Positions 3,190 to 41,734 of a stretch of DNA of 64,000 nt are shown here, in pieces (within the stretch, counting starts at the first letter, position 1; each line of letters starts with the position of its first letter). Where the stretch lies: NCBI GenBank assembly GCA_000092065.1, contig CP000589.1; one strand, given 5' to 3'. The position numbers were made by a program, and so were the translations under genes. This DNA is from Ostreococcus lucimarinus. Lineage: Eukaryota. Under the pieces are notes generated by a model. It was not told the origin of the DNA. It was given only the letters and a program-made list of their open reading frames with translations, and ran no database searches.

Positions 3190-3254
3190 CGCGTCGTAAG
3201 ACGTTGTAGCGGCTAGTACTAGTACACCAAGAGTAGATCTCTCGACGATTCATT

Positions 3255-3977: not shown

Positions 3978-4019
3978 GCGCGCCGATGTGTGTGGATTTA
4001 AAACGACGCGCGACGACGC

Positions 4020-6810: not shown

Positions 6811-6838
6811 ACGCGCCGCGTTCGCAGGTTCCAAGGAC

Positions 6839-9526
6839 ATGAAAGAGCTGCTCGGTAGCAAGGGCAGCGGGTTGGCGGAGATGGCGAGATTAGGTTTGCG
6901 CGTTCCCGCGGGTTTCACCGTCTCGACGCGGTGCTGCGAGCGTTACGAGCAGTCGGGAATGGACTTCGTGCGTCGGGAGCTCTGGGAAGAAGTTTTGGAC
7001 GGCGTCGCGTTCATCGAGAAGACGACGAAGCGGACGGTGTTTCGATCCGGGTGCTCGTTGGTAGCCGCGCCGCCGCTGTTGCTGAGCGTTCGATCGGGCG
7101 CGGCGGCGAGCATGCCGGGGCAGATGGACACGGTGTTGAATCTCGGGATGAACGACGAGTGCGCGCAAGCGTGCGTGAACGCCGGGTTCGATGCGCGATG
7201 GGTCTACGATTCGTACCGCCGTTTGATCTCGATGTTCGGCGACGTCGTCGAACATCTTCCGAAACAAGATTTTGAACGCGCGCTCACGAAGGCGAAGGAA
7301 ACGAATAACGCTCGTTACGACACCGAACTCGACGCCGAGGCGCTGAAACTGCTTTGCGGGGAATTCAAAGACATCTACGCGAAGCACGGCAAAGTCTTCG
7401 AGCAGGACGCGATGAAACAGTTGGAACAGAGTGTCGTCGCGGTTCTTGAATCGTGGAACACGCCGCGCGCGGTCGAGTATCGCGAAATCAATCGCATCAC
7501 TGGTCTTCGCGGCACGGCGGTAAACGTACAGCAGATGGTTTTCGGGAACATCAACGACAATTCCGGCGCCGGCGTGTGCTTCACGCGCAATCCGGCTGAC
7601 GGCGCGGATGAGACGTACGGTGAGTACCTCGCGCAATCGCAAGGAGAAGACGTCGTCTCGGGCGTGCGGACACCGATGGGGCTGAAAGCTATGGCGGAAT
7701 CGCAACCGAAGGCGGCGGAAGAGCTCGAATCGGTGTGCGACGCGCTCGAGGACGATTTCAAAGACATGTTAGACATCGAGTTTACGATCGAAGATGGCGA
7801 GCTTTACATTTTGCAATGTCGTGTCGGCAAAAGAACGGGAACGGCGGGCGTGCGAATCGCAACGGAGATGTTTGCGGAGGGAATCATTTCAAAAGATGAA
7901 GCACTCATGAAAGTCAACGCGCAAAGTCTCGAGCAGGTTCTGCATCCAGTTTTTCTTCTCGACGCCGCGTCGCCGGATTACTCGTCGAAAATCGTCGCCA
8001 GCGGTTTACCCGCGTCTCCAGGCGCGGCCGTCGGTCGAATCGTGTTTTCTTCCAAGGAAGCGAAAGAGTACAAATCACAAGGGAAACCGTGCATTCTGGT
8101 GAGGGAAGAGACGAGCGCAGACGACATAGGAGGCATGTACGCGGCGGAAGGCATTTTGACCGCGCGGGGAGGGATGACATCGCACGCCGCCGTCGTCGCT
8201 CGGGGATGGGGCAAGCCGTGCGTGAGCGGATGTGGCGCCATCAGCTTTAAGAATGATCGCGAGATTCGCTTCGGGACGAGCGATCGCACGTATCGCGCCG
8301 GTCACACGATTTCCATCAACGGCGCGACCGGTGAGGTGATCGACGCAGAACTCGCGGTGGCGCCGAGCACGATTGACACTTTCTTACCTCTCAAGACTCT
8401 GATGCACTGGGCCGATGAGAAGCGCCGTGTTGAGATCCGAGCCAACGCGGACACGCCCGAGGACGCGGCGGCGGCGATTCGCAACGGCGCGAAGGGCATC
8501 GGATTGGTTCGCACAGAACACATGTTCTTCTCATCGACCGAACGCGTGCACGCAATTCGCGAGTTTATCATCGCGCAAGATGAGCAAGCGCAAAAGGTGG
8601 CGCTCGAAAAGTTGGAAAAGTTTCAGTACGAAGATTTCAAAGGAATTCTGAAATCTGCCGGGGGCTTTCCCGTGACGATGCGCTTGATCGATCCACCTCT
8701 TCACGAATTCTTGCCGTCCCGCGAAAAACTGCGCGAAGGAGCGGCGAACGAAATGTCCAAGTACATTCACGGAAAATCAGCGCACGACATCATCGAAATC
8801 GCGGAGAGCATGCGCGAGCACAACCCAATGCTTGGTTTCCGCGGCTGCCGATTAGGATGCGTCAAGCCTCGCATTACGCGCATGCAAGTCCACGCGTTTT
8901 GTCGAGCCGCGATCGATCTCATCGCCGAGGGCGTGCCCGTGGAACCTGAAATCATGGTCCCGCTCGTGAGCACAGTGGAGGAGTTTCACAACCAACGGGA
9001 TTTGATCTGGGATGTCATACGAGATCTCGGGCGCGAAAATCAGGCTCCGCCGATGCGCGTGCAAGTCGGCGCCATGATCGAAACTCCGCGAAGCGCGCTC
9101 ATCGCCGGCGAGCTCACGCGCGCAGGCGCCAGCTTCTTCTCTTTCGGCACAAATGATCTCACGCAAATGACGTACGGATTCTCCCGCGACGATAGCGACG
9201 CCTTCGTCAAGCCTTACAAAGACATGGGCATTCTCCAAAGCGACCCGTTCGAGATTCTGGACACCGTCGGCGTGCGCGAACTCATCTCCATCGCCGCCGA
9301 ACGCGCGCGCGCCGTGCGCCCGGACGTCGAGCTCGGGATATGTGGCGAGCACGGCGGTGATCCAAAGTCTTTAGTCACCATCGACGCGCTGGACTTGGAC
9401 TACGCCTCGTGTTCGCCGTCGCGCGTGCTCGTCGCGCGCCTCGCCGCCGCGCAAGCCGCCGTCGGCGGCGCGCCGTCCAAACAGCGAAAGCGCGCCGCGC
9501 GCTCGCACGCCTCCCCAGCCGCGTGA
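6839..9526 (+). CDS. PPDK: pyruvate, phosphate dikinase
   Basis: Full-length collinear match to PPDK: N-terminal ATP-grasp region (MKELLGSKGSGLAEMARLGLRVPAGFTVST), central phosphohistidine domain (GGMTSHAAVVARGWGKPCV), C-terminal PEP-utilising TIM barrel (GLVRTEHMFF...GICGEHGGDP). No transit peptide in the ORF. Confidence 0.95.
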   Translation: MKELLGSKGSGLAEMARLGLRVPAGFTVSTRCCERYEQSGMDFVRRELWEEVLDGVAFIEKTTKRTVFRSGCSLVAAPPLLLSVRSGAAASMPGQMDTVLNLGMNDECAQACVNAGFDARWVYDSYRRLISMFGDVVEHLPKQDFERALTKAKETNNARYDTELDAEALKLLCGEFKDIYAKHGKVFEQDAMKQLEQSVVAVLESWNTPRAVEYREINRITGLRGTAVNVQQMVFGNINDNSGAGVCFTRNPADGADETYGEYLAQSQGEDVVSGVRTPMGLKAMAESQPKAAEELESVCDALEDDFKDMLDIEFTIEDGELYILQCRVGKRTGTAGVRIATEMFAEGIISKDEALMKVNAQSLEQVLHPVFLLDAASPDYSSKIVASGLPASPGAAVGRIVFSSKEAKEYKSQGKPCILVREETSADDIGGMYAAEGILTARGGMTSHAAVVARGWGKPCVSGCGAISFKNDREIRFGTSDRTYRAGHTISINGATGEVIDAELAVAPSTIDTFLPLKTLMHWADEKRRVEIRANADTPEDAAAAIRNGAKGIGLVRTEHMFFSSTERVHAIREFIIAQDEQAQKVALEKLEKFQYEDFKGILKSAGGFPVTMRLIDPPLHEFLPSREKLREGAANEMSKYIHGKSAHDIIEIAESMREHNPMLGFRGCRLGCVKPRITRMQVHAFCRAAIDLIAEGVPVEPEIMVPLVSTVEEFHNQRDLIWDVIRDLGRENQAPPMRVQVGAMIETPRSALIAGELTRAGASFFSFGTNDLTQMTYGFSRDDSDAFVKPYKDMGILQSDPFEILDTVGVRELISIAAERARAVRPDVELGICGEHGGDPKSLVTIDALDLDYASCSPSRVLVARLAAAQAAVGGAPSKQRKRAARSHASPAA

Positions 9527-9582
9527 TCCACCCTTACACTTTAGATTTTACGCTTTTACGACGCCATCACGTTTCTTCGTCC

Positions 9583-9614
9583 GTCGAATCGTCGAATCGT
9601 CGAGTCGTCGAGTC
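9583..9614. repeat. (GTCGARTC)4 tandem octamer in the PPDK 3' flank
   Basis: gtcgaatcgtcgaatcgtcgagtcgtcgagtc is seen directly. Confidence 0.85.
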
Positions 9615-9725
9615 GTCTCGCCGCGGCCACCTGGCGCCAACGACCACATGACGACAGTGTTCATCGGGTCGCGTCACACCGCGGCGCGCGTCCGCCGACG
9701 CGCGGCCGCGTGAGAAACGCGCGCG

Positions 9726-12527
9726 ATGGAGAGCTTCCACGAGCACTCCTACGAGCTCTCGCGCCTGGCGCGCGGTGAAAGCAGCGCCGACGTCGCGCGC
9801 GCCAAAGATGATTTCCAAGCGACGTCGCCCGCGAATTACGTCCCCACGCGCGCCGAACTCGTCGGAGGCGTCGTCGGAGGCTCGGAAACCGACGCCACGC
9901 ACCTGCGTTTGCAACGCATGGCGGCGTTCGAGTCGCACGATTACGACCCGATCGATAACGATCTCGAGGAGGACGCGCTGCGGGGACGCACGCGAGAAGA
10001 CTATAAACGCGAGCGAGCGTGGAAGTGGGCGACGAGCGTGATGATCGGTGCGGTGATGGGAATCGTGGCGTTCGTGATCGATGGATTGGTGGATAAGCTG
10101 AATTTGTTTCGGTACGGGGTGATCGGAGATAAGGTTGGGACGGACGGATACGCGCGGTTCGTCGCGTGGTTGCTGCACGCGGTGGTGAGCTGCGCGTTCG
10201 CGGCTGTCGCGGGAGGGCTGGTGTCGTACGTGGAACCGCTCGCCGCGGGATCGGGGATCCCGGAGTTGAAGACATACTTGAACGGCGTCCACCTCAAGGG
10301 GCTTTTGCGGTTGAAGACGGTGGTGGCGAAGCTGGGGGGGATTTCGTTTAGCATCGGCGCGGGATTAATCGCGGGCAAGGAGGGACCGTTCGTGCACGGA
10401 GGTGGGTTAGTCGGGGGTGGGTTGAGCGCGTTCGGGTCAAACACGCTCGGCTTCAAATTGAAATATCCCGCGTGGTTCCGAGATGATCGACATAAACGGG
10501 ACTTTGTCGCCATCGGCACCGCCACAGGCGTGGCGGTGGCGTTCGCCGCGCCCATCGGCGGCATGTTGTTCACCGTGGAGGAGGGTGCGAGTTTTTACAA
10601 CTCGGACATGTTATGGCGCGGGTTTTTAGCGACGTGCACGGGCGTGCTCACGATGCACTGGCTTGAACAGCTCGATTTCGACGCCGGAGACTTCGCGCGC
10701 GCGCGGTTCGGCACCCATCGCGACTTTGGATTGTACACGGACAGCGAGGCGGATTACTCAAAGAATTATTGGTGGTACTTTTGGGAGGTACCGATTTTCA
10801 TCGCCATGGGTGTGTGCGGTGGTTTACTCGGCGCTGCGTTCGTGAACTTGAACGTGAAAATCACGCAGTGGCGCGCCAAGTACATTCCCGTGACGGATCG
10901 GAGAAAGCGCTTGCTCGAAGTGATCGCCATTGCGGGGATCACGTCGACGCTATTTTTCTTCTTCATGTCCGTGTCGCCGTGTAAGGATATCCCTCTGCCG
11001 TTGCGAGCTGGGACGGCGGACAGTCTCGACGACATGTCCAATTCGAGCTTTGAGTACGGGGTGGAGACGAGAGACGAGATTCGCAACGATTTCTTCAAGC
11101 AGCTGTATTGCCCGGATGGTCAATACTCGGTGTACGGGCAATTATTTTACAACCCACTGGCGACGTCGTTCAAGTTTTTGCTCCATCTCGGCGAAGTCGG
11201 CGAGTTTGGCGGTGACAGTGCGCACCCTTTCCCGATCGGTGCGTTGATATGGTACTTCCTCTTGACGTTCTGTTTGATGACGGTGACGTACGGCATCGGA
11301 GCCCCGACGGGGCTCTTCGTGCCGTCGCTCGCCGTCGGGGCTTCTTTCGGTCAACTCTGCGGACGCGTGGTGGCACACATCGCCGCTTCGCGAGGAAGCG
11401 ATGTGAAGATTAACTTGCACGCCTACGCCATCATCGGCGCGGCGGCAAATCTCGGCGGGGCGACGAGAATGACCATTTCGATCACCGTTTTAGTCATGGA
11501 AACGACGGGTTCGATGCAGTTAATTATTCCACTCATGTTGACGATTTTCACCGCCAAGGCCGTGGGTGATCGATACGGGCACGGCATTTACGACACGCAC
11601 ATCAAAATCCGCGGAGCGCCGTTCTTGGAAGAGCCCGAGCTCGCTGGACCGACTGGAGACAAGCTTCGAGTGAACGAAGTCATGAGCGACGAGTTGGTGA
11701 CGCTTCAGCCCGTGATGCGCGTGAAGGATTTGCTACAGATCCTCACTCAAACCCCGCACGGGGCGTATCCAGTGACCGAACACCCGCCCGCGTACGCGGG
11801 CGAAGATTTCGAGCTGCACGGCTCCATCACGAGGAATCTGTTGCTCAAGATGCTCCTGCACAGAATTTCCTTCGTCGACGCGAGCGGCGGTGGACGCGTG
11901 GGCGGAGACAATCTGTTCACCAACCCGCGCGAACGCGACGATTTGCTCGAGCAATTGAAGCAAATTCCGTTCAAAGTGCCGAGCGCGCGCGAGGTGGCCC
12001 ATCGCGTGTCGGAAGAAGACATTCGCACGATGTCCGTCGACTTGCGAAGTTTCATGCAGCGCCACCCGTTCCTCGTGCACGCCGACGCGCGCGTCAGCCG
12101 CGCCTACCGTCAATTCCGAACGATGGGTTTGCGTCACATGTACGTCATGCCTTCCCGCCCTCGCGTCGTCGGCTTGCTCACGCGCAAAGACATCATTCAA
12201 GAGCGCACGAGCCTGACGTTGGGCTTGTACGCGCGCGGCTTGGCGCGTCCGCCCGCGCGACCCGTCTCCCGCACGTCGGAGCCCCCCCACGACGCTCGCG
12301 ACGCCGCCGTCGCGTCCACCGCCACCGCCCTCACCCCGAGCGCCGCCATCGACGACGACGACGACGCCAAGCTCCCCTACATTCCCTACTACGCCAACAA
12401 CTCGGCGACGACGGACGACGGCGACGACGCCGCCGCGAGCGCTCGCGCGTCCCACGCTTCCGACCTCGACGCCGCGCGCGCGTCCAACCCATTCATCGAC
12501 GCCGCGTCGACGCTCCGTCGTCGATGA
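9726..12527 (+). CDS. CLC chloride channel/antiporter with C-terminal CBS domain pair
   Basis: CLC selectivity motifs: GSGIPE (AAGSGIPELKTYLNG), GKEGP (GKEGPFVHGG), GLFVPS (GLFVPSLAVGASFG). Multiple TM helices; C-terminal CBS-like blocks (VMSDELVTLQP..., HPFLVHADARVSRAYRQFRTMGLRHMYVM). Confidence 0.9.
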   Translation: MESFHEHSYELSRLARGESSADVARAKDDFQATSPANYVPTRAELVGGVVGGSETDATHLRLQRMAAFESHDYDPIDNDLEEDALRGRTREDYKRERAWKWATSVMIGAVMGIVAFVIDGLVDKLNLFRYGVIGDKVGTDGYARFVAWLLHAVVSCAFAAVAGGLVSYVEPLAAGSGIPELKTYLNGVHLKGLLRLKTVVAKLGGISFSIGAGLIAGKEGPFVHGGGLVGGGLSAFGSNTLGFKLKYPAWFRDDRHKRDFVAIGTATGVAVAFAAPIGGMLFTVEEGASFYNSDMLWRGFLATCTGVLTMHWLEQLDFDAGDFARARFGTHRDFGLYTDSEADYSKNYWWYFWEVPIFIAMGVCGGLLGAAFVNLNVKITQWRAKYIPVTDRRKRLLEVIAIAGITSTLFFFFMSVSPCKDIPLPLRAGTADSLDDMSNSSFEYGVETRDEIRNDFFKQLYCPDGQYSVYGQLFYNPLATSFKFLLHLGEVGEFGGDSAHPFPIGALIWYFLLTFCLMTVTYGIGAPTGLFVPSLAVGASFGQLCGRVVAHIAASRGSDVKINLHAYAIIGAAANLGGATRMTISITVLVMETTGSMQLIIPLMLTIFTAKAVGDRYGHGIYDTHIKIRGAPFLEEPELAGPTGDKLRVNEVMSDELVTLQPVMRVKDLLQILTQTPHGAYPVTEHPPAYAGEDFELHGSITRNLLLKMLLHRISFVDASGGGRVGGDNLFTNPRERDDLLEQLKQIPFKVPSAREVAHRVSEEDIRTMSVDLRSFMQRHPFLVHADARVSRAYRQFRTMGLRHMYVMPSRPRVVGLLTRKDIIQERTSLTLGLYARGLARPPARPVSRTSEPPHDARDAAVASTATALTPSAAIDDDDDAKLPYIPYYANNSATTDDGDDAAASARASHASDLDAARASNPFIDAASTLRRR

Positions 12528-29667: not shown

Positions 29668-32600
29668 CTAAGGCCCGCGCGATTTGATTGGCGATTGCGC
29701 GGGCGTGTTCGCCGCCGACGGCAACCGACTCGACGGGCGCGGGACGACGGCGAAGGCGTCGTCACCGAGCGACGATCCGATTTGAACCTTGACGGGCAGC
29801 GGCACGGCTAAATTGAATTCGTTCGCGACGGATTCCATGGCGTGTCGCACGATTTGTGCGATGGCTTTGGCGCTGCGCGCGTCGCACTCGAAAACGCACT
29901 CGTCGTGCACCGTCAACACGAGCTGACATCGTTCGATGAGATACTTTGTGCGCAAAGTATCGATGACGCGCACGACTGCGGTCTTGAAGATATCTGCCGC
30001 GCTGCCTTGGCACACCGTGTTCACCGCCTGCCGCTCCGCGGCGGCCCTGTCGTCGTTATTCTTTGAGTGCAAATCTGGAAAATATCTGTGCCGAGCGCTG
30101 ATGGTCGTCACTCGAGCGATTGGCTTTTCCTCTCGCGCGCGGATGACGATGCCGTCTAGCCATTCCATCAGACGTGGAAGCATAGATTTGAATCGAGCGA
30201 CCTCGGATTTCGCCGCTTCTTCGCACATGCGCAAATCAGATGCCAATTTCTTAGCTCCGCTGCCGTACAACAATCCGTATACCAAATTTTTGCAATTCGT
30301 TCGCTCTTCGGCGAGCACGGTGTCGGGGGCTTTTCTGTACCACTTGCTAGCGAGCATCGTAAACGGGTCGTCTTTTAAGTTGTTTGGTTCAGGATTTTGA
30401 AGCATGTGAATCAGCGTGCGATCTCCACTGAAGTGCGCCATGATTCGAAGCTCCAGCTGCGAATAATCCGCGCGAACGAACACCTTGGCCGCCGGGGGCA
30501 CGAAGGCGGACCGTATCGATATCTTCGGCGCGTCGAGGCCGTAGAATTGATCACCACACGTCATGTCGTGCGCTAGCGAGTGAAAATTTGGTTCGCTGTG
30601 CGCCAACCTTCCACAGTCGTGATTGGTTTGAAAGATGGAATAGCGAATGCGAGAGTCATCGGCGTACATGCCGAGAATGGTGTCGGCGAAACCGCGTCTC
30701 TTGAACACGCTCCTGTGTTCTATGATGAGCAACGGAAACGGATGATTACTTTGCTCGTAGAGCTTGCGCAAGTTGTTGGCGTCGATACTGGTCTTCGCGC
30801 CCGGCGGCGGCGTGAGTTTCAAATGTTTGTACAGACGATCTTGCAGGTAGGTGTTGTTCGTCAGCGCTCTGCGTGCGATCGACACCGAAGAATCGAGAAC
30901 TATCCATTTTTGTGTCAAAGCGTATTCCTCTAGCTTCTTGAGACGATCATCCATCGTCGCCATCTCCTCGCGCATCTTGCGTGCGTCGAAAGGAATTCGG
31001 ACGGTTTGCATCGCCACGATCGGAGCTACAAACGGCATTTCGATCTCCATGAGAGGTCGGAGAAGCTCTTTCTCTTGACACTCTTTCCAAGTTAGGTGAC
31101 CCATGGCGTAGCACGCCGCGGTTGCTCGCGATAACGGTTTTAGATGGTCTCGATCTTTACCAAATCGATCCACAATATGACACGCCGCCTCGACGCCGCT
31201 CGTCGCTTCGCCCAACTCGGCGCTAAAGAGTTTCATAAGCGGATCGGTCGGGTCTGTCCCACGCATCAGCGCATCGTGTGCGCTTGCTTTGACTTCATCC
31301 GCACTTGGACGAAGAAGCCACGCGGCGATACGCACGTCCACGCACGGCTGTGCGAAACAGAAGAGACGGGCGGCGTACGTACTCGCTCGCGCGTCGACAA
31401 TGTTGCAGAGCTGTGACTGCAAGTCGATCGTAAACTTTCTTGGGCCTTCTTTCGATAGAATCTCGAGCGCACGCGCGATAGGGATGCCGACTATCTCGCG
31501 ATTTCTGATCGCATTCTTCTGCTCGTGCCTGTCGTACAAAAGCTTGGCGATGAACACAGCGCGCGAATTCAACGCCACAGCGATGCGCGTCGGCTCCTCG
31601 AACGCTCGACGCTCCCCCGACGACTCGTGAACGCTTTTCGGCTGGAAAATCACGGAATATGCCGAGGAATCCTGCCATATGCTCAAGAACGTCTCGATAT
31701 CTTCCGAGGTTTCGAGCAAGGTTGTGCCGACTGCCGTTCGCACATCGAGTTCAATCGCCAGATCTAACGAGTTCTCATTCGCCATGCCGGCTTCGATTTC
31801 TCGTATCTCGGCTAATCTAGTCTCAGTCTCTTCGCGTTCCTCCCGCGTCTGCTCTGCTACAATTTCTCTGGCGCGAGCTAAAATCTCCCGAGCCGCTCGC
31901 ACGATGGCCGAGGGCGCCATGCCGTTCTTGTTGTACTGCTTCAACACGGCGGCGATTTTATCGACACTACCCAAAGTCACGATGGCTTTCGGCGTCGTGA
32001 TGCCTCCCGTGTACAACGCTCTGGCGCGATGAATTCCAATGTACGGAATTTTCGTCAATTCTAATATCTCTTCCTGTGCCCCAGCGGTGATTCGATCGCT
32101 GATTCTAGTGATTAAACCCTCCATGTCGCCCCAACCGAGAGTACCACAAATCGCCGCTACGTACGACGCGAAACGCGCACACGATTTTTGTTCCTCTAAG
32201 ACGTCGAACGCACGAACACCGTACTTGCTGGTGATACTTTCGATTGGAACTTCTTGTATCAAGTCCGTAAGAAACAATGCGACGTGAAAGCGCTGACATG
32301 CGAATCGCTGAAGCTGGTGAGCAATTGTGATGTCACGTTTGTTCGAGCGCAACCTTTGAACATAACGCTCGTCTATGCCAACCTTTTCCGCGATCCGTAA
32401 TTGCTCCGCGTTCAGATTCGACCAGAGCACTGCGAGTGCGTCCAGCGTCCTAAATTTGTTCAGATTCACCGGCGCCCCTTCGTCGTCGAGCACCGGTGGA
32501 GCAGTCAAGAGATAGAGTAAATGCAGTGGCGTGCTCAGTACCAAATCTTCGCGAGCCGTCTTCACGTCTCGAATGATTGGCTGCACTTGATCCAGAGGCA

Positions 32601-34731
32601 TCATACCTCCAGCCACGGCGTTTCCGAGCGCCGATGCGCTCCACAAATAAGCAGTCACATTCCAAACGAGAAGTGCATTCTTTTGGCACCACCGCAGCGC
32701 GTCGATGGCGGTTTGTCTCACGGACTCGTCAAAGTCGTTTAGCGCCGACAGCAAAGTACACTTGACGTAGTCCTGCACATCTGTGGGTATCTTCACTAAA
32801 CCAGCCGCGACCGCTTCGAGCATAATACGCCGCATGCCGACTTCGGCCACCGCGCTAGTGAGCTCATCAGACGGACCGTCGACGAGAGCGCACACGTTGT
32901 CTAATTCAGCGAGTTTCGGGCAAAATATGATCGCAGATCCACTGGTATCAAGTCCGGCACGACCGGCGCGACCTGTCATCTGCTGGATGTCTCGCGCATT
33001 CAGCTTTTTCCATCCCATATTCGTATCGCGAAGAATGACGCGTCGAGCTGGAAGGTTGACGCCGGTGGCGAGCGTACTGGTGCAGCACAAGACGCGAATG
33101 ACTCCGCGTTTGTAGGCGTCGGCCACAGCCTCGTTTTCCTCTCGAGAGAGTCCAGCGTGATGAAACGCGACACCATCTTTGATGTATGGAAGCACATCGC
33201 TCTTAGCACCGAGTGCGGTTTCATAGCCAACGACGATCTCGTCTCGCGACAACGTAGCGTTGTGGATTTGGCGCGGCACGGTGCACTGCATCATATTTCG
33301 AAGCTGATCTGCCAACGTCTTACACGCTGCTCGCGTCGAACAAAACACCAAAACCGATCCATCTTCATCGATCGTTTCCTGAGCGAGCTCTGCGATGTGT
33401 GCGTTGTCTGAATTCGGCGATTTATTCAGCATCGTCCGAATCACGTGCTTCGTCGCCGGATGGAAAATCTCGCAACCAACCTTGACGCACACTTCTAGTC
33501 TGATTGGACGAAAGTTCGTCACATAGAGCCGAGCGAACAACCAATCAGCGAGCGCTTTCAGGTTTGGGATCGAGGCGCTCATACCTATGATTTGCATCGA
33601 ACGCTGATCGCGCGTGCCACCGCGAGTGTTCCCGACTGAGTACGTTGTCTGACTTCCATCTTCGTCGCCTACAGTCGGCTCGCCGCTCGCTCGCGCTTTA
33701 CGCCTCCACAATCCACTCGCGTACACGAGTTTGGTAAGGAACAACTCCATCGTTGCCCCGCGATCATCGTCTTGAATCAAGTGCAGCTCGTCGACGATGA
33801 CGGCGCTCAGTTCGTGTAGCCGATTCTCTTCTAGCAGTCTCGACGTCACTTGGTTCGCCCGCTCTGGCGTGAGCACCAATAAGGTGTTCATCTTTGAATC
33901 GCTCGGAAACGCTCCGCCTCGCCCGCCGTACATCCTTCGCAATCGAAACTCCGTTCCCGCAAAGAGATTTTCTAAACTGTCCGCGCGCTCTTCGCAAAGA
34001 GCGACAAACGGCAACACAAACATCGCCACGCTCCCCGGTCGCTCGCGAAACCGACGCATCAATAGTAAGTCCGCGACGAGACTTTTACCCCCGCTCGTTG
34101 GTGCGCTGTACAACAAATTCACGCGCCCCTCCATCACCCCCGGCAGAGACAGGCACTCCATCTGCCACGGGTACAACTCTCGCACGCCCTTCGCCGCGAG
34201 CGCTTCGCGCGCAGACTCCGGCACGCCCCAAAACTCCAAGTCTCTCCGCCCCGTCGCCGTCACCGGACGTTCGATCGACGTCGACGCCTCATTTCCACGA
34301 CTCGCGCGCGCGTCATCCGTCGTTCTCGACCGCGACCGCGCCGACCGTTCCGCGCTCAGTCTCGCCGCGACCTCCGCGAGCGCTTCGTCGTCGACGTCGT
34401 CCAACAGCGTCTCAAGCCTTTCCGGCGTTTTCGCCCCACTGTGTCTCGAAAACCGCGCGGAATCCTGCGTCAACCCTCGCACGCGATCGCTGCGCGCGCG
34501 ATCGTCCGACCGTTCGGCGCTTCCGTCGTCGCGCGACGCGGCGACGTCGACGCGAGGCCGTTTCAACCGTTCATCGCGCGACTCGCTCGAAAACGCCTCG
34601 TTCGCCGCACGCCGTCGCGCGTTCTCGTCGTTCTCCCCCACGGTGTCGCGCATGAGGTCGACGATCATGGTCTCCGGGTCGAGCGACCGTCGACGGCGCG
34701 ACAGGCGACGCGCGGGCGTGGAGCCGGGCAT
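29668..34731 (-). CDS. DNA polymerase theta (helicase-like domain + family-A polymerase domain)
   Basis: N-terminal superfamily-2 helicase motifs (LLYSAPTSGGKSLVADLLL, VIVDELHLI, VAFHHAGLS, QMTGRAGRAG). C-terminal Pol A motifs (DYSQLELRIMAHFSGD, NLVYGLLYGSGAKKLA, LVLTVHDECVFE). 1687 aa; real ATG. Confidence 0.9.
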   Translation of the reverse strand: MPGSTPARRLSRRRRSLDPETMIVDLMRDTVGENDENARRRAANEAFSSESRDERLKRPRVDVAASRDDGSAERSDDRARSDRVRGLTQDSARFSRHSGAKTPERLETLLDDVDDEALAEVAARLSAERSARSRSRTTDDARASRGNEASTSIERPVTATGRRDLEFWGVPESAREALAAKGVRELYPWQMECLSLPGVMEGRVNLLYSAPTSGGKSLVADLLLMRRFRERPGSVAMFVLPFVALCEERADSLENLFAGTEFRLRRMYGGRGGAFPSDSKMNTLLVLTPERANQVTSRLLEENRLHELSAVIVDELHLIQDDDRGATMELFLTKLVYASGLWRRKARASGEPTVGDEDGSQTTYSVGNTRGGTRDQRSMQIIGMSASIPNLKALADWLFARLYVTNFRPIRLEVCVKVGCEIFHPATKHVIRTMLNKSPNSDNAHIAELAQETIDEDGSVLVFCSTRAACKTLADQLRNMMQCTVPRQIHNATLSRDEIVVGYETALGAKSDVLPYIKDGVAFHHAGLSREENEAVADAYKRGVIRVLCCTSTLATGVNLPARRVILRDTNMGWKKLNARDIQQMTGRAGRAGLDTSGSAIIFCPKLAELDNVCALVDGPSDELTSAVAEVGMRRIMLEAVAAGLVKIPTDVQDYVKCTLLSALNDFDESVRQTAIDALRWCQKNALLVWNVTAYLWSASALGNAVAGGMMPLDQVQPIIRDVKTAREDLVLSTPLHLLYLLTAPPVLDDEGAPVNLNKFRTLDALAVLWSNLNAEQLRIAEKVGIDERYVQRLRSNKRDITIAHQLQRFACQRFHVALFLTDLIQEVPIESITSKYGVRAFDVLEEQKSCARFASYVAAICGTLGWGDMEGLITRISDRITAGAQEEILELTKIPYIGIHRARALYTGGITTPKAIVTLGSVDKIAAVLKQYNKNGMAPSAIVRAAREILARAREIVAEQTREEREETETRLAEIREIEAGMANENSLDLAIELDVRTAVGTTLLETSEDIETFLSIWQDSSAYSVIFQPKSVHESSGERRAFEEPTRIAVALNSRAVFIAKLLYDRHEQKNAIRNREIVGIPIARALEILSKEGPRKFTIDLQSQLCNIVDARASTYAARLFCFAQPCVDVRIAAWLLRPSADEVKASAHDALMRGTDPTDPLMKLFSAELGEATSGVEAACHIVDRFGKDRDHLKPLSRATAACYAMGHLTWKECQEKELLRPLMEIEMPFVAPIVAMQTVRIPFDARKMREEMATMDDRLKKLEEYALTQKWIVLDSSVSIARRALTNNTYLQDRLYKHLKLTPPPGAKTSIDANNLRKLYEQSNHPFPLLIIEHRSVFKRRGFADTILGMYADDSRIRYSIFQTNHDCGRLAHSEPNFHSLAHDMTCGDQFYGLDAPKISIRSAFVPPAAKVFVRADYSQLELRIMAHFSGDRTLIHMLQNPEPNNLKDDPFTMLASKWYRKAPDTVLAEERTNCKNLVYGLLYGSGAKKLASDLRMCEEAAKSEVARFKSMLPRLMEWLDGIVIRAREEKPIARVTTISARHRYFPDLHSKNNDDRAAAERQAVNTVCQGSAADIFKTAVVRVIDTLRTKYLIERCQLVLTVHDECVFECDARSAKAIAQIVRHAMESVANEFNLAVPLPVKVQIGSSLGDDAFAVVPRPSSRLPSAANTPAQSPIKSRGP

Positions 34732-34936: not shown

Positions 34937-37900
34937 CTACGGCGCGGACGCTCCGGCGTTCGCGGCGTCGACGCCGGTGACGTCGCGCTTCAGGAGGTAG
35001 TGGGCGAATAAGGGTAAGTCTGGAAACGTGTGCGCGATGTAAGCCTCGACGATTTTGCGCGAAGACGTCCAAGGATCGGCGGCGGTGTCTTCGGGACGCA
35101 GGAGCACGGCGACGTTGGATCCGAGCGCGCGGAGCATCTCCGCGCGTTCGGCTTCGAGCGGCGGATGCTCGTGCATATTACGCGCGAAGCGCACCAGATC
35201 GAACAAACGATTGCCGTAAGAGTAATCCTTGGGTTCGTTTTGTCTCGGCGGAGGAACGACGTCGGCGGCGCGCTTGCCGCCGCGGCGGCGGTTGCGCTTT
35301 GAATTTGTCTTCGACGCAGCTTCCGCCGCGCGAGCCGCGCGGGCGTCTTCCCACGTCTGCTGCATGTTCGCCGTGCGTTGTGCGTACCTATCTGCGCGCA
35401 CTAGTAGAGATGGAACGACGAGAGACTTCCAGTTGCGAATCGATTGCGCCGCTCGCTCGGCTTGTCCAGGTCGCCCCTTCCAAACCGTCTGCGCGAGATC
35501 TGCTTCGTCCTTTTCCGAAAGAGAGTTCACGATGCGCCGATCGAAAATTTCTCGAACGGCTTCCATGCACTCTTCAACGTCCCAAAGCGCGGGGTGCTCG
35601 CAAACCTCCGTGGCGGTGGGACGCTCACGCGGATCCGGATCCAACATCCGGTGAAGGAGTTCGCGCGCCGCGACTGCGGTGTGCGACGGTAACATCGCGG
35701 TCTCGATCGCTTGAAGACTGAATTTGCCTTTTACGATGCGTTGATTTTCAAATCCAACGTCCAGCGCGGTGGATGCGCTCAGATCGAGTTCTTGCGTTGG
35801 GGATTTGTTTCGCGAATCCATCTTCCTCTCTTGCTTGTACGGCGATTGCAAACCAGTCATGATGGTGTACATGAGACATCCAAAACTCCAGACGTCAACC
35901 TTGGGCGTCAGGGGAGCGTTAAGCAACACTTCCGGTGGTCGACCTTGTAAACCAATGTTCACCCCGTACCCTTCAAAAGTTGTGAGCGAGTACGTGTTGC
36001 CATCCGTCGCCTTGTTTGCGTCCTTCAATCGCACCCCGAGGCCCAAATCCGCGAGCTTGAACTCGCCGTCCGCGCTCCGAAGGCAGTTGTCGGCTTTGAT
36101 GTCGTTGTGTGTTACACCGGCAGCGTGCACGTCTTCCACAGCTTGAGCGAGTTGTCGCACGGCATCCATGCGCTCGACGTGCGAGATCGCCGGCGCGCCG
36201 CCAGCAGTGCCCGCATTCTTCAGCCACGTCGCCAAAGACTCGCCGCACAGCTCCATGGCGGTGTAGATTGCCCCATCACCGCGGTCGACGTCAAGTTTAC
36301 TACCCAGTATATGCGTCGCCCGCGTGCTTCGCTCGTTCAAGTGCTTGTGAATGGCAATCTCTCTTTCAATCAATGACTTCATGTTGTCTCCGCGCTCGCC
36401 CGGCGGCAAGGGGATGCGCTTGATCGCGGCGTCGCGACGAACGACTCTGTTGCCCGCACCCTCGTCGTAATATCCCTTGAACACGACAGTTCCGAGCGAT
36501 CCTCGACCGAGAATTTCAGCCTCGTTATACCAAATATTACGTCCGGCGTTCACCCACCGATCACTATCCGAATCATTCCCAGACGTCGGCGCCGGTAAAA
36601 GTGAATCCGTGATTCGATGGGCACGAATGAACGCCTGTATCTGACGCTCCAAATTCTCTAGCTTCGTCTCCGCGCTACGCACAATGTCTTCGTCCACTCC
36701 CATATCTTTGGCTTGCGCGATTCGCTCGCGCAGCTTCACAGGGTCAACATCTTCTGCGGCGTGTAATAAATCTCTCGCCGCGCCTAGAGCGAGAACGCGC
36801 GCACGTCCAAGCTTGCTCGCCTTGGCTGCAGCGTCGACGTCCTCGGCATCCATTTGCAGCGCATCCATAAGCTCGGTAGAGATATCCTCTTCTTGTAATT
36901 CTTCCATGTTCTCATGCGACACTTGCAAAGCGCTCCCAGCCAGGCGCGCTTGGATGCGCGAAGAGAGCTCGTTCATGAGCTCCTCCATCTCCACCCCTTG
37001 CGCCTCGAGCGCCTGAGGTCCGCCCTCGATGGGCATGGGCGCCCCGGCGAACTCGTTGATGCGGTTGACTGTGTCTAAGAACGCCTGTCGGTGCATTTCT
37101 CCAAGCGCCGCGATTTGCTCGAGCTTTCCTAATTGCATACTAAACGCAGCCACGGACGGTTCGATTTGCGGCAGGTGTACTTCTGACATCCTTCCCTTGG
37201 CGTTCCACATCTCACGCAACAACACCTCAGCCTTGACCACGTCCGCATCGTCGCGTGTGTCCGTGATTTCTCTCGCGCGCGCCGTGAGCGCTTTCAGTTC
37301 AGCTCGAAGATCCGCCTTGCGCACCGCCGCTCTAAATTCGCGCAGCGCGTCGAAAATCTTTGTCACGGGCGGAAACACCTTCGCCTTGCCCTCGGGCGTA
37401 CCGTGGAACGCGATCAACTTGCGCTCTTCTTCAAGAATTTCTTCATCCGTCATCTCACCTCTAAGAAATCTGTGCGTGTGCTGCGTCGTCTCGACGATGG
37501 AATCACCGAACGATCTCGTCCTTGATCTCAAACGATTGATGAATCGCAAGCCACCAAAGATGGCGTTCATCAGAAACCATCGAGAATCGTGTTGCTTTCC
37601 TAAATAGGGCGCCGTATATTCATCAAACCACTTTCTCGCGCGCACGCTCGTCATCTCGCCAAACTTGTCGAGCTCACCCGCGGACATCATCTTCGTCACT
37701 TCCGGTAGCGTGAGGCCGTTGTGCGACCACTCGTTGAGCCACTGCTTTTGAATGTTGTCCAGTTGCCCGATGAAACGAGCGCTATGTTCTTCGATCGCAG
37801 CCGCACGCGTGAGATCGGTGAGATCGGACATGTACTCCTCCCACTGTTTTCCCACCGGCACGTTCGAACCGCGATGACCTGCAAATTCCAAGCCGCACAC

Positions 37901-38902
37901 GACGACGCGGACGTCGGTCGTCTTCGCTAATCGCAGCGCTGTCTCGATATCTTGCTTTATCATCTCCCGATTCTCCGGCGAATTGTTCACCGGAGGCAAA
38001 ACCCAAACGAATAATTGCGGCGATAAGCTATCGCTAAACTCAGAGAATGCGAGCTCGTGCATGGGGATGACCGTGATCGGCGTATCCGGTCGAGCGTCGA
38101 CGACGCGGCCCGATTCCTCCATGCGCCGGACTAAAATCTGATGCAAGCGTAGCCCTTCCCAGTCGCGCGGTAAGCCGGCGAGCGTCATGTACGCGTTCGG
38201 TCTGAACATCGATAACAAAGGCGAGTACCTCGCTCTCTTCGTCGCTTGCATGAGCAGCATGTTGGAGATCATGTTATCGAAGAGGGCCTCGCCGCGTTGC
38301 GTGAGCTCGATATCCATCGTTTTATTGCTTCGAACGTTGTACAGAAACGTTGATTTTCGCGCGGATCCTTGCGTAAACGTCAAGAACTTCGACGCGCTCC
38401 TAGATTGACCGACTATGGCTCCCAGAACGGCGATGTTTCCGCGCATGCCCTCCATCGCCGACGCGCTCAACCAGTTCCACAGCGCCGGCGCGAACGAAGG
38501 CGTGAGCGCCTCCTTCGCCACCGGTTCGCGCCCACCGTACCATCGCGCCAGCACTTTCGGCGCGCTCAGCTCGGGTTCGTACGTCTTCTGCACCGCTAAT
38601 CTATGCTCCGTCATCTCGTTCCCCGTGAGTTCCGAACTCGCCACGTTTTCCCGCGTCCAGTCGTAATCTTGCGCCAACCAACCCTTCAGCAGTTTCGACC
38701 CCGGTCTCGGCGTCTCCAACCCGAGCTCGCGCGCGCGCTGCGACTCAAAACTAGACGACGCCGACGTGGAGTACACCCCGCGCGGCGTCCGATCGCGCGC
38801 GCTCGTCGACGCGTCGAGCCCCGAGCGCGCGCGCGCGTCGACGCCGCCCGCCGTCTCGCGTCCCAGTCCCACCGCCGCGCGCGCCGCGCGACGACGCAGC
38901 AT
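34937..38902 (-). CDS. protein kinase + KEN (IRE1/RNase L-type endoribonuclease) domain protein with ~800-aa unrecognised N-terminal region
   Basis: Kinase subdomains: GRGSLGTVVFKG, AAIKRI, EREIAIHKHL, HNDIKADN, LADLGLG, VDVWSFGCLM. C-terminal KEN-like block: DYSYGNRLFDLVRFARNMHEHPPLEAE...IVEAYIAHTFPDLPLFAHYLL (compare IRE1 Y..RFLRNKKHHYRELP...FP.LL.H.Y). No TM helix or signal peptide is evident; there are no ankyrin repeats. Confidence 0.85.
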   Translation of the reverse strand: MLRRRAARAAVGLGRETAGGVDARARSGLDASTSARDRTPRGVYSTSASSSFESQRARELGLETPRPGSKLLKGWLAQDYDWTRENVASSELTGNEMTEHRLAVQKTYEPELSAPKVLARWYGGREPVAKEALTPSFAPALWNWLSASAMEGMRGNIAVLGAIVGQSRSASKFLTFTQGSARKSTFLYNVRSNKTMDIELTQRGEALFDNMISNMLLMQATKRARYSPLLSMFRPNAYMTLAGLPRDWEGLRLHQILVRRMEESGRVVDARPDTPITVIPMHELAFSEFSDSLSPQLFVWVLPPVNNSPENREMIKQDIETALRLAKTTDVRVVVCGLEFAGHRGSNVPVGKQWEEYMSDLTDLTRAAAIEEHSARFIGQLDNIQKQWLNEWSHNGLTLPEVTKMMSAGELDKFGEMTSVRARKWFDEYTAPYLGKQHDSRWFLMNAIFGGLRFINRLRSRTRSFGDSIVETTQHTHRFLRGEMTDEEILEEERKLIAFHGTPEGKAKVFPPVTKIFDALREFRAAVRKADLRAELKALTARAREITDTRDDADVVKAEVLLREMWNAKGRMSEVHLPQIEPSVAAFSMQLGKLEQIAALGEMHRQAFLDTVNRINEFAGAPMPIEGGPQALEAQGVEMEELMNELSSRIQARLAGSALQVSHENMEELQEEDISTELMDALQMDAEDVDAAAKASKLGRARVLALGAARDLLHAAEDVDPVKLRERIAQAKDMGVDEDIVRSAETKLENLERQIQAFIRAHRITDSLLPAPTSGNDSDSDRWVNAGRNIWYNEAEILGRGSLGTVVFKGYYDEGAGNRVVRRDAAIKRIPLPPGERGDNMKSLIEREIAIHKHLNERSTRATHILGSKLDVDRGDGAIYTAMELCGESLATWLKNAGTAGGAPAISHVERMDAVRQLAQAVEDVHAAGVTHNDIKADNCLRSADGEFKLADLGLGVRLKDANKATDGNTYSLTTFEGYGVNIGLQGRPPEVLLNAPLTPKVDVWSFGCLMYTIMTGLQSPYKQERKMDSRNKSPTQELDLSASTALDVGFENQRIVKGKFSLQAIETAMLPSHTAVAARELLHRMLDPDPRERPTATEVCEHPALWDVEECMEAVREIFDRRIVNSLSEKDEADLAQTVWKGRPGQAERAAQSIRNWKSLVVPSLLVRADRYAQRTANMQQTWEDARAARAAEAASKTNSKRNRRRGGKRAADVVPPPRQNEPKDYSYGNRLFDLVRFARNMHEHPPLEAERAEMLRALGSNVAVLLRPEDTAADPWTSSRKIVEAYIAHTFPDLPLFAHYLLKRDVTGVDAANAGASAP

Positions 38903-39511
38903 CGCGCGCGCGCGCTCGATCGTTACCTACGCGTCGCCCCCCGCGCGTCTCTCCCGCGCGCCCGCCCCGCGCGCGCGCCGCGCCGCCGCCGTCGTCTCGC
39001 GCCAATCCGCCTCGAGCGTTCGGTCCGCGTCCGGCGCGACCGAACGCCGGCTCGAGATCGCCGGCGCGAGCGACGTCGAGCCCGCGTCGAGGTCTTCGCG
39101 TCGACGCGCGCCGACCGCGCGCGCTCGACGCCGCCGGCGCGCTGTGGGGCGGCGACGCGCGCGCGCGCGTGTTTCGTATGGCGTCAGTGAGGAGACGAAT
39201 TTCTGGAATTCGGCGCATTCGGAACGCCCATCGAATCACGTATAGTAAACCGGAGACGCGCGCCGAGGGTTCAGGCGCCGCGCGCGCGTCAGAAGGCCGC
39301 GCGCGCGACGCGACGCGACCGTCGAGCGCGCGGACGGTGGGAGCGTCACGTCGGTGGCCCTCGGCGAGGACGCGCGCGCGCGACGCGGCGAAGACGCGGC
39401 GCGCAGAGGGAGAATTCCCGAACGATTCGGTGACGTAGATCTGGCGCGAATTGTCGGTGGGAAATCGCGAAACCGGCGACGGGGCGCGCGGTGAGCGTCG
39501 ACGGTGACGAG

Positions 39512-41734
39512 ATGCCGGCGTGCGCGATGGGAAACGATGCCGCGGAGCCGTACGCGAGCGCCGCGGGACGCGCGACGCAGGAGGTGCGGAAAGCGAGCGA
39601 CGCGACGCGCGGGGGACGGGGAGAGATCAGAGGAGAGACGCCGGATTTGCCGCTGTCTTACGCTCGAAACGGCGGGACGTGCTCGACGAGCGATGACTCG
39701 AGGCCGAGTTCGAGGATGGCGATGGGCAAGGATGGGAATTCGCGCGCGAGCGGGGACGGGACGACGTCGGGAATGGAGGAAGAGCGCAGACGAGCGAGAG
39801 AGGCGACTCGCGCGTGGTTCTCGGAGCGCGCGGCGAACGGAGATCTGGAGCTCATGCGCGCGGAGTTACACTCGATGGGACAGAAGGAGTTACAGCGCAT
39901 GTTTGTCGAGATGTTTGACCGCGCGACGACGAGCAACAATAATCAGTGGTTGCGAAGACGAATCGCCAACGGGTTGGGCTTGGAGGACGTCGCCGAGCAC
40001 GTCGTGAGCTCGCAAGCCAAGTTGGCTTCGGCGACGAACGAACGCGTTCCATCGAAGAGACAAAGTGCGCGTCGCAATGCGGTGGAAACCGCGGCAGTAA
40101 CACCGGCGGCACAGGCGACGCCGAACACGCGGGGCGCGGAGTCCCCGGACGAGGCGGCGGAGTTCACCCCTGATGGCGTTCGCAAGTCTCGTCGAGCGGT
40201 GAAGCCGAAGGCGATATTTGATTCCGACGCGTTTCCTTCCGCGGCCAAGGTGAGTGAGGAGCGTAGGCGAGAACGAAAGCGACAAGAGGCATTGGAGCAG
40301 GCGGCGACGTGCGCGAGTGGTGTAACGACGGATCATCACGGCGGCAAGGCCGCCGTAGGACGCCGCGTGCGAGTGTACTGGCCTCTCGAAGGCAAGTTCT
40401 TTGCGGGTGTCGTCACTGCGTACAACGCGCGCACTGGCTTGCACCACATCGACTACGACGACGGCGACAAGGAAGAAATCAAGCTGGCGACGCCCGAACA
40501 GCCTCGCAAGTTTGAGGCCATCGAGCACCCGGCGTTGGCGTCGACGCCTTCTCCGGCGAGTGACTGGCCTGCACTTACGAATACTGTCGATTCATCGATA
40601 TCGTTGTCTATGCCGCAGCCGGGACGACCTGCTGATATTCTCAGTACGCTCCCGTCAAGCTGGCCGGCGGTGGGATCGCTTGTGTGGGGTCGGGTGCGCG
40701 GTCACGGCTGGTGGCCCGGAGCGGTGCACGACAAGGACGCGAGTCACGACATGCAAGAGATCAGTTTCTTCGACAACAGTAGGGCTCGACTTCACCGCCA
40801 CGACTTGTTGCCCTTTCAACAGTATTACATGGTGCTGCGCGACGCGAAAAAGACGCACGCGTACGCCGAGGCGGTTTCTCGAGCGGCGGAAACGTATGAA
40901 AGCCGACGGCAGCGAACGGTGAAGCGACGTTCGAAGAAGGAAGAGCAATCAAACGTCGAAGAGTCGAGTGAGCCGCCGAGAATATGGCATTTCGAACGCG
41001 AGGGGGCAAAGAAGTCGCACAAGCGGTCGAAAGACGTTGACGTCGACGACGCAGGCGCGGCGAAGCGAGGCAAAGTGAACGAACACTCGACGACGGTATT
41101 CGGTTCGATTGAAGCTCCGAAGACTCTGAACGATCTAAATAAGAGCTTGGAAGAGATGAAGGCCAAGATGTTACCGCTCGCGAAAGAGAGCCGAAAGACG
41201 CTCAACAAACATCTGGTAGACACCGCCAGAAAAGTGAAAACGGAGGCGGCTGACGACGACGAAGAGACACTGATCGCCGCCGATGAACGTGTCGTGGTGC
41301 TCGACGAGTTGGCGTCCATCGAATCCTTGATTGCGTGGAGCGAAAACAAAGCTGCGAAGTCGCCCGCCAAGACTCCCGATTTGTCCTTCATGACAAAACG
41401 CGGCGATGACATTTCACCCTCGGACCCGAAAGGGCTTCTACGACAACCGAGTGAAAACTTGTTGTGCTTGGGTGAGATTAGTGAGTTTTTCGACGGTACC
41501 GCGCGAGCGGATCCCTTGGGAATCGACGATCCAATTGTCGCCGATTTGGGCGCGGACGAAGTCGCCAAGATGACCGCGCCATCCACGCCCGAGCAACACG
41601 GCATCGAAGGCGAGGGCAGTCCGTTCGCAAAAAGCAACATGAGTGACTCGTGCACCACGCTTCACGCCTCTTACGGTGACAAAAAGATTAACGTCTCAGA
41701 GACGCCGGTGACGAAAGGAGCGCTCTCCGCCTGA
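39512..41734 (+). CDS. chromatin-reader-like protein with Tudor-like and PWWP domains
   Basis: Tudor-like block: VGRRVRVYWPLEGKFFAGVVTAYNARTGLHHIDYDDGDKEEIKLATPE. PWWP block: GSLVWGRVRGHGWWPGAVHDKD...ISFFDNSRARLHRHDLLPFQ. The ORF-track start at 39491 is GTG; the first ATG is 39512. Confidence 0.7.
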   Translation: MPACAMGNDAAEPYASAAGRATQEVRKASDATRGGRGEIRGETPDLPLSYARNGGTCSTSDDSRPSSRMAMGKDGNSRASGDGTTSGMEEERRRAREATRAWFSERAANGDLELMRAELHSMGQKELQRMFVEMFDRATTSNNNQWLRRRIANGLGLEDVAEHVVSSQAKLASATNERVPSKRQSARRNAVETAAVTPAAQATPNTRGAESPDEAAEFTPDGVRKSRRAVKPKAIFDSDAFPSAAKVSEERRRERKRQEALEQAATCASGVTTDHHGGKAAVGRRVRVYWPLEGKFFAGVVTAYNARTGLHHIDYDDGDKEEIKLATPEQPRKFEAIEHPALASTPSPASDWPALTNTVDSSISLSMPQPGRPADILSTLPSSWPAVGSLVWGRVRGHGWWPGAVHDKDASHDMQEISFFDNSRARLHRHDLLPFQQYYMVLRDAKKTHAYAEAVSRAAETYESRRQRTVKRRSKKEEQSNVEESSEPPRIWHFEREGAKKSHKRSKDVDVDDAGAAKRGKVNEHSTTVFGSIEAPKTLNDLNKSLEEMKAKMLPLAKESRKTLNKHLVDTARKVKTEAADDDEETLIAADERVVVLDELASIESLIAWSENKAAKSPAKTPDLSFMTKRGDDISPSDPKGLLRQPSENLLCLGEISEFFDGTARADPLGIDDPIVADLGADEVAKMTAPSTPEQHGIEGEGSPFAKSNMSDSCTTLHASYGDKKINVSETPVTKGALSA

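Follow-up and report, generated by a model that had tools for sequence, protein, structure and literature searches.

To our knowledge, only two enzymes that join a protein kinase to a KEN ribonuclease domain have been characterized in mechanistic detail: IRE1, of the endoplasmic reticulum (ER) unfolded protein response (UPR), and RNase L, of the vertebrate antiviral response. Located on the minus strand at 34937..38902 of a 64,000-nucleotide stretch of Ostreococcus lucimarinus DNA (GenBank assembly GCA_000092065.1, contig CP000589.1; the whole stretch is referred to here as the window) is a gene whose product ends in a kinase and a KEN-like tail, and the question raised by this locus, posed in an earlier note, is whether the same pair of domains is used here behind a sensor of a different kind. 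We consider it very probable that the protein comprises a kinase and a KEN-homologous domain preceded by a novel N-terminal module (N-module). It is IRE1- and RNase L-like, but has the defining sensor features of neither.

Gene structure and absence of membrane segments

The open reading frame (ORF) is uninterrupted and comprises 1,321 codons followed by a stop codon at 34937–34939; all features of the protein described below lie on the same, minus strand. The window protein is identical, without gaps, in 1,317 of 1,321 residues to UniRef100_A0A7R9T1X1 (Ostreococcus sp. 'lucimarinus'), a member of its 90%-identity cluster that derives from an MMETSP transcript and is flagged as a complete ORF. 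Owing to this near-identical complete transcript ORF, the gene can be said to be transcribed as a single intronless ORF, as the earlier note had modelled it, and a single gene is supported over one with a separate N-terminal gene: the transcript ORF spans the entire protein, and the orthologues are likewise encoded by single ORFs. The public name of the UniRef entry is 'Protein kinase domain-containing protein', with no mention of a ribonuclease.

Nine codons 5′ of the ATG is an in-frame stop, and the 590 bp separating the gene from its divergent neighbour contain no hydrophobic stretch in any of three frames (best 19-residue Kyte–Doolittle mean of 0.46). Owing to this stop and the lack of a hydrophobic frame, a hidden upstream exon encoding a signal peptide or transmembrane (TM) segment, of the kind that would make the protein an ordinary IRE1, is not supported. 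Within the 1,321 residues themselves there is no TM-grade segment, the best 19-residue mean being 0.96, far under the TM range, and a whole-protein scan of Pfam gave no match to a lumenal domain or, at E ≤ 1, to ankyrin repeats. The layout claimed in the earlier note, without signal peptide or TM segment and resembling neither IRE1 nor RNase L, is borne out on each of these points.

The kinase domain

The eukaryotic protein kinase domain (residues 792–1105; 35588..36529) matches Pfam Pkinase (PF00069) with E = 4.3e-32, scoring 112 bits where the cut-off is 31.7. Its core is complete, with every motif at the place at which it had been claimed: the G-loop GRGSLG (residues 799–804), the AAIK lysine (K828), an αC glutamate (E848) aligned with that of IRE1, the catalytic loop HNDIKADN (residues 932–939; H932-N933-D934 and N939), the DLG triad (residues 952–954; D952) and a PPE motif (residues 989–991). 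With HND in place of HRD, the domain reads as a non-RD kinase. These motifs are invariant in seven orthologues and are seen again in distant lineages.

Queried with the whole protein, the PDB sequences return IRE1 chains as the top matches, in alignments that span the C-lobe and continue into 'HP.LW...DR', at the start of the KEN domain. Queried with the kinase only, they return PLK3, CDK9/12 and TTK at 45–50 bits and IRE1 at 43.9 bits. As these kinases slightly outscore IRE1 with the kinase alone, the domain is a eukaryotic protein kinase of generic type, with no specific likeness to IRE1; a scan of NCBIfam gave only generic kinase matches.

A probable divergent KEN domain

Directly C-terminal to the kinase is a predicted divergent KEN (HEPN) endoribonuclease domain (residues 1102–1304; 34991..35599), identified by hhalign and by sub-threshold similarity to Pfam Ribonuc_2-5A (PF06479). 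The junction HPALW (residues 1103–1107) lies at the end of the Pkinase match. For profile–profile comparison, the reference KEN alignment consisted of four PDB-verified sequences (human and yeast IRE1, human and pig RNase L), and the family tail alignment included the distant members P0031, P0032 and P0036; a second, 20-sequence KEN profile combined the four verified sequences with 16 diverse IRE1 KEN domains from metagenome contigs.

With its inserts in place, the tail aligns to the four-sequence KEN alignment with a probability of 91% (E = 1e-6), over the catalytic half only. Removal of a basic insert, described below, extends the alignment to 125 of 140 columns (95.8%, E = 8e-9). Seven close tails alone, with the insert removed, give 94.7% over 117 columns (E = 5.8e-8), and the insert-free tail against the 20-sequence profile gives 93.9% over 124 columns (E = 1.6e-7). 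As controls, the reversed KEN alignment reaches 0.4% and 60 column-shuffled alignments at most 1.5%; with the 20-sequence profile, 15 column-shuffled alignments reach at most 0.9%. Used in plain HMMER, the 20-sequence profile aligns to nearly every family member in three collinear blocks, corresponding to the start of the domain, its catalytic helix and its 'FP' helix. For every insert-stripped tail from four divergent lineages the best Pfam match, always below its cut-off, is PF06479, with 15.3–20.9 bits in the three lineages other than that of the window protein; for the native window tail it comes second, behind a weak match to DUF5753. Hypoth_Ymh, another HEPN family, weakly matches the tail of one further lineage.

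Several results weigh against this assignment. PF06479 is not matched in the whole-protein scan, and its cut-off of 23.3 bits is reached neither by the native tail (13.9 bits) nor by the tail with the basic insert removed (17.6 bits). A HMMER profile of eight close tails retrieves no IRE1 or RNase L from the PDB sequences at E ≤ 10; its best match there is the ribosomal protein uL30 (E = 0.004, 20 bits). It could accordingly be argued that no KEN domain is present in the tail, its RNxxxH motif having arisen by chance in some other fold, such as a uL30-like one, or in a lineage-specific helical extension. The AlphaFold2 model of residues 764–1321, calculated from seven near-identical sequences, does not speak against such a view: it shows a helical tail, but with a mean predicted local distance difference test score of 36.6 it failed and is untrustworthy.

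A HMMER miss of this kind is nevertheless to be expected among true KEN domains, as the KEN domain of human IRE1 (identical in sequence to PDB 4z7g) itself fails to retrieve RNase L with phmmer at E ≤ 0.01. The profile–profile probability of 94–96% over the whole KEN length compares with at most 1.5% in 75 shuffled or reversed controls, the collinear blocks and the ranking of PF06479 recur among the lineages, and the tail sits exactly at the place of a KEN domain, straight after the kinase C-lobe. We regard the absence of a KEN domain as highly improbable.

The uL30 match itself, weak but repeated, covers the C-terminal half of the tail (residues ~1228–1304; 34991–35220) with the pattern 'R.+..hPP....e.lR......vlvr'. 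A uL30-like fold was rejected for the tail: the match is restricted to that half, the length of the aligned segment varies among lineages, and the alignment to KEN, which covers the full domain, is much stronger. The similarity is judged coincidental. A homologue search with the tail alone returned close fragments only, and neither PADLOC nor PHROGs gave a meaningful match for the tail or for the N-terminal region.

The tail is thus best described, from its alignments, as a divergent KEN domain in which the active-site residues are maintained. The KEN domain proposed in the earlier note stands on profile–profile probabilities of 91–96% set against controls of 1.5% or less; as a native sequence, it stays under the Pfam threshold.

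Putative active site and loop insertions

The putative RNase active-site segment (residues 1229–1246; 35165..35218) was identified by conservation and by alignment to the catalytic helix of IRE1 and RNase L. It lies within the string DYSYGNRLFDLVRFARNMHEH, corresponding to residues 1226–1246 of the window protein, and contains Y1229 and the HEPN-type Rx4H motif R1241-N1242-M-H-E-H1246, that is, R-N-x3-H, with the same spacing as RNKxHH in IRE1 and RNLGEH in RNase L. Y1229 is invariant in all lineages and precedes R1241 by 12 residues, whereas Y1227 is variable. A spacing of 12 matches that of the RNase L tyrosine in 'FYQNTVGDLLKFIRN'; the IRE1 spacing is 13, the catalytic tyrosine of yeast IRE1, Y1043, lying 13 residues before R1056. 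The earlier note had read this segment as a tyrosine followed, after 13 residues, by R-N-x-x-H: the string that it quoted is present and the residues are conserved, but the actual motif is R-N-x3-H and the invariant tyrosine is Y1229, at 12.

Each of the nine family tails that span the segment retains the tyrosine, arginine, asparagine and histidine, and so do two contigs of a GC-rich lineage, L003 and L046. More broadly, Y-x11-R-N-x3-H-P-P and a downstream '[TRQ]FP[DE]' helix are kept among lineages that are only ~25% identical over the N-terminal region and tail. In KEN domains, mutagenesis has shown that the arginine, the polar residue following it and the histidine of the HEPN RNase signature Rx4-6H are needed for catalysis (PMC3710099), and the R-N-x3-H of the tail conforms to this signature.

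Inserted into the KEN loop ahead of the candidate catalytic tyrosine is a variable, basic, low-complexity segment (residues 1183–1226; 35225..35356), delimited by alignment of the lineages. It comprises 44 residues in the window protein and ~115 in P0031 and P0032, and varies in both length and sequence. A second insertion of ~20 residues separates the catalytic helix from the FP helix. KEN models fail on the tail owing to these two insertions, and omission of the basic one restores end-to-end KEN alignment by hhalign. An 11-residue lysine-rich insertion, ISKKKKAKHTN, occupies the same KEN loop in pig RNase L (PDB 4o1o, ~633–643), and human RNase L is without it. Basic inserts seem to be tolerated in, or attracted to, this loop.

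Such divergence bears on a further possibility, that the protein is a signalling kinase with a pseudo-RNase tail, derived from a KEN domain but unable to cut RNA and retained only as a dimerization or regulatory scaffold. The strong divergence of the tail, its two insertions, including the basic low-complexity loop of 44 to 115 residues, its sub-threshold Pfam score and the offset of the candidate catalytic tyrosine by one residue from the IRE1 spacing would all fit this description. The invariance of the arginine, asparagine, histidine and tyrosine at ~25% identity, while their surroundings vary, is instead the pattern expected of a maintained active site, and the tyrosine spacing equals that of an active enzyme, RNase L. 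A pseudo-RNase therefore appears improbable to us, and a catalytically competent KEN domain remains the reading that we prefer.

The N-terminal module

At the N terminus is a variable segment rich in Arg, Ala, Ser and Thr and poor in acidic residues (residues 1–53; 38744..38902), which is not conserved in alignment A1. The first 40–60 residues of P0002–P0007, P0031 and P0065 are also variable, with abundant Arg/Lys and Ser/Thr/Ala and little Asp/Glu, and this composition is the same across all lineages, AT-rich ones included. In composition the segment looks like an organellar (chloroplast or mitochondrial) transit peptide. Owing to the transit-peptide-like N terminus in every lineage, the cytosolic location entertained in the earlier note is unsupported.

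Following this segment is a conserved N-terminal extension with the pattern ELGL..PRPGS..W (residues 54–138; 38489..38743). It is conserved in seven orthologues, is recognizable in P0031 and P0065, and has no Pfam match.

The next region, referred to here as the N-domain (residues 139–493; 37424..38488), is predicted to consist of a RecA-like three-layer α/β domain (~158–343) followed by a helical bundle. The structural model, of moderate confidence, shows one RecA-like α/β domain and then helices, with neither an ankyrin solenoid nor a tandem RecA-like pair. At the equivalent strands in alignment A6 there is neither a Walker A motif (GxxxxGK[ST]) nor a Walker B/DExH motif. The N-domain has no match in Pfam, in the PDB by sequence profile, in PADLOC or in PHROGs, and no structure in the PDB or BFVD matched the model in Foldseek at E ≤ 1e-3. 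A profile search with alignment A6 gave zero matches and missed family members as well, and is uninformative.

Connecting the N-domain to the kinase is a linker with little Pro or Gly and much Glu, Ala, Leu and Arg (residues 494–772; 36587..37423), presumed from its composition to be helical. The orthologues conserve it, and it can be aligned with P0031 and P0032. Its heptad score rises just above the 99th percentile of shuffled sequences, and does so only at ~486–533 and 612–652, so that a long canonical coiled coil in this region is unsupported. Of the helical or coiled-coil stretch described earlier, the helix-like composition is retained and residues 494–772 are probably helical, whereas the coiled coil has weak support.

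In all orthologues, residues 54–772 and the kinase form a single conserved block. An exhaustive phmmer search with residues 55–780 against 1.84 billion representative proteins gave only 20 matches. Apart from fragments and members of its own cluster, these were a few distantly related proteins with 23–32% identity and a repeat artefact, P0020. This last protein (1,681 residues, E = 1e-36) was rejected as a relative, its score being a chance match to residues ~334–368 (query positions 280–314) amplified over 23 stretches; it is a tandem-repeat protein with a unit of ~70 residues, 'NPQRPSFAG.SGGGHFGQIIPPGKPWPAYPPNTTDIVERIDE'. At the level of sequence, the N-terminal region is new: in agreement with its earlier description as unrecognized, and apart from a few algal relatives, no family for it exists in Pfam, the PDB or the 1.84 billion proteins searched.

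Distribution and genomic neighbourhood

The N-module, kinase and KEN tail occur together in three groups. Seven Ostreococcus-type proteins share the layout at 70–100% identity. The AT-richer group P0031/P0032/P0065 was found in Tara and ENA marine data, and its full-length members P0031 (1,461 residues) and P0032 (1,292 residues) have the N-module, the helical region, the kinase and the KEN-like tail in the same order. In the GC-rich lineage, L046 is a polished 1.3-Mb contig with 70% GC that carries the series of motifs in the same order, and the gene in L003 is split across frames.

A fourth lineage, represented by the intron-rich green-algal contig L044 (59% GC), has at 3162–9768 an N-domain followed, ~3.9 kb downstream, by short kinase exons, at which the contig ends. 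Its kinase motifs are near-identical to those of Ostreococcus (GRGSLGTV, RRPAAIKRIPLPPGERG and GVTHNDIKPDNCLRAASG), whereas the N-domain is 32% identical; by this comparison, constraint seems to be much tighter on the kinase than on the N-domain. A search for orthologues, proposed in the earlier note, thus finds the layout recurring in at least four green-algal lineages, in L044 up to the kinase.

Immediately downstream of the gene in the window is a full-length DNA polymerase theta of 1,687 residues (DEAD/Helicase_C, POLQ_helical and DNA_pol_A domains; 29668–34731, minus strand), which is also found downstream of the orthologue in L001, indicating conserved local synteny. The divergent upstream neighbour encodes a protein of 747 residues with a Tudor (PTM/DIR17-like) and a PWWP domain (39491–41734, plus strand); in L046, a PWWP protein of 769 residues (1695–4004) adjoins the family member in tandem rather than divergent orientation. 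These shared neighbours, DNA polymerase theta with L001 and the PWWP protein with L046, appear to support orthology.

In both L003 (6257–7189, minus strand) and L046 (10184–10867, minus strand), the first gene downstream of the family member encodes a Porin_3 (VDAC/Tom40-type) protein. In the Ostreococcus window this position is taken by DNA polymerase theta, and Porin_3 is not immediately downstream. The GC fraction of the window is 0.54–0.57 over 30001–34000 (the DNA polymerase theta gene) and 36001–38000 (the middle of the kinase–KEN gene), and 0.63–0.70 in the flanks.

Comparison with IRE1, RNase L and other proteins

As in IRE1 (yeast Ire1p and human IRE1alpha/ERN1; PDB 2RIO and 3P23), the kinase is fused directly to the KEN domain through an HPxFW-type junction, and R-N-x3-H, an upstream tyrosine, the C-terminal 'FP' helix and all kinase catalytic residues are present; activation by oligomerization under control of the sensor is presumed to be common to both. 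Unlike IRE1, the window protein has no signal peptide, lumenal sensor or TM segment, but a soluble RecA-like domain and a helical region. Its kinase is non-RD and not IRE1-specific, and its KEN domain has two insertions, scores below threshold and carries the tyrosine at 12 rather than 13.

With RNase L (human and pig; PDB 4OAU/4OAV and 4O1O) the protein shares solubility and the order of an N-terminal region, a kinase-fold domain and KEN. The tyrosine–arginine spacing is 12 in both, the motifs are very similar (DLLKFIRNLGEH versus DLVRFARNMHEH), TFPDL is present in both and the basic insertion of pig RNase L falls in the same loop. Unlike RNase L, it has no ankyrin repeats and so no recognizable 2-5A site, and its N-module is unrelated. 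The kinase-like domain of RNase L is described as catalytically inactive, whereas the kinase of the window protein keeps its catalytic residues; RNase L is known in vertebrates and the family described here in green algae.

The resemblance to IRE1 allows another interpretation: that the gene is a remodelled Mamiellophyceae orthologue of IRE1 in which the lumenal sensor and TM segment were lost and replaced, and that its product still serves the ER UPR through a partner at the membrane of the ER, with the splicing of a bZIP60-like mRNA as one example. The direct fusion, the IRE1-like junction (HPxxW...DR) and the rank of IRE1 chains as top PDB matches for the whole protein are consistent with this, as is the failure to find a literature report of IRE1 in Ostreococcus or Micromonas. 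A metagenome scan for canonical IRE1 KEN motifs gave 40 loci, which served to deepen the KEN profile and of which none was Mamiellophyceae-like, although the motifs were strict animal and fungal ones and the scan can demonstrate neither the presence nor the absence of a canonical IRE1 in Ostreococcus. The kinase alone is not specifically IRE1-like, however, and the KEN motifs (tyrosine at R-12, RNxxEH, TFPDL) are at least as RNase L-like as IRE1-like. The N-module is, moreover, conserved as a unit across lineages, with a homologue of the N-domain and kinase in the intron-rich green alga of L044. We hold a remodelled IRE1 to be unlikely, and favour a soluble enzyme of the same class as IRE1 and RNase L, with an N-module of its own.

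Other proteins offer partial parallels. Plant IRE1C is a kinase–KEN protein without a canonical lumenal sensor, and in this respect the window protein resembles it and KEN-only proteins. Among the architectures catalogued in a survey of HEPN domains are fusions of KEN with kinase, ankyrin, CCCH, UBI or BRCT domains, and expansions of solo KEN (Anantharaman et al. 2013, PMC3710099); the N-module, ~770 residues long, conserved and family-specific, matches none of these architectures. The RecA-like fold of the N-domain model recalls SF2 (superfamily 2) DEAH/RHA RNA helicases (RNA helicase A RecA1, PDB 3LLM), but the N-domain has no NTPase motifs and only one α/β domain.

Proposed mechanism

In both IRE1 and RNase L, ligand-induced self-association of the sensor unites kinase–KEN units, and nucleotide in the kinase cleft stabilizes the RNase-competent dimer; their KEN domains cleave RNA without metal and leave 2′,3′-cyclic phosphate ends. 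By analogy, the window protein would be a soluble member of the same class, in which a non-RD Ser/Thr kinase is joined through HPxxW to a divergent KEN domain. Its N-module, consisting of a RecA-like domain without NTPase motifs and ~400 residues of helices, would respond to a ligand or partner by self-association. This would pair two kinase–KEN units, with nucleotide binding or trans-autophosphorylation stabilizing the active state, and the paired KEN domains may then cut RNA independently of metal through R1241, N1242 and H1246, together with Y1229, leaving 2′,3′-cyclic phosphate ends.

The architecture and the conservation of both active sites are established from the sequences; by analogy with its relatives, we infer RNase and kinase activity, activation by oligomerization, a sensed signal, RNA targets and a subcellular location for this protein. 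A role in sensing stress or RNA, as the earlier note suggested, may be among its functions. The full scheme, of a soluble dual kinase–KEN enzyme that associates through its N-module and cleaves RNA, is in our judgement somewhat better than an even prospect.

A more specific version would place the enzyme in or on an organelle. Owing to the transit-peptide-like N-terminal composition conserved in every lineage, the protein could be a third kinase–KEN ribonuclease targeted to, or docked on, the chloroplast or mitochondrion, which cleaves RNA upon organellar stress or infection with the degenerate helicase-like domain as its sensor, possibly in connection with the Mars1 chloroplast UPR. The catalytic Asp of Mars1, the kinase of that response in Chlamydomonas, is residue 1871 of a much larger protein (PMC6794094). 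The likeness between the two proteins is one of description (large size, no known motifs, a C-terminal kinase and a possible transit peptide) and serves only as a lead. This organellar version seems to us quite improbable.

Implications

IRE1 and RNase L represent one catalytic engine coupled to two different sensors, and a third architecture, if true, would mean at least one further re-use of this engine, with a new input. Localization, knockout and RNA-target studies should be feasible, as Ostreococcus tauri has been genetically transformed. The diversity of KEN and HEPN domains is probably underestimated, because domains with loop insertions of the kind seen here escape Pfam. In this case a kinase–KEN family conserved in ecologically dominant marine picoalgae has been invisible to standard annotation, and it would constitute a third wiring of the kinase–KEN stress-signalling enzyme, behind a previously undescribed N-terminal module.

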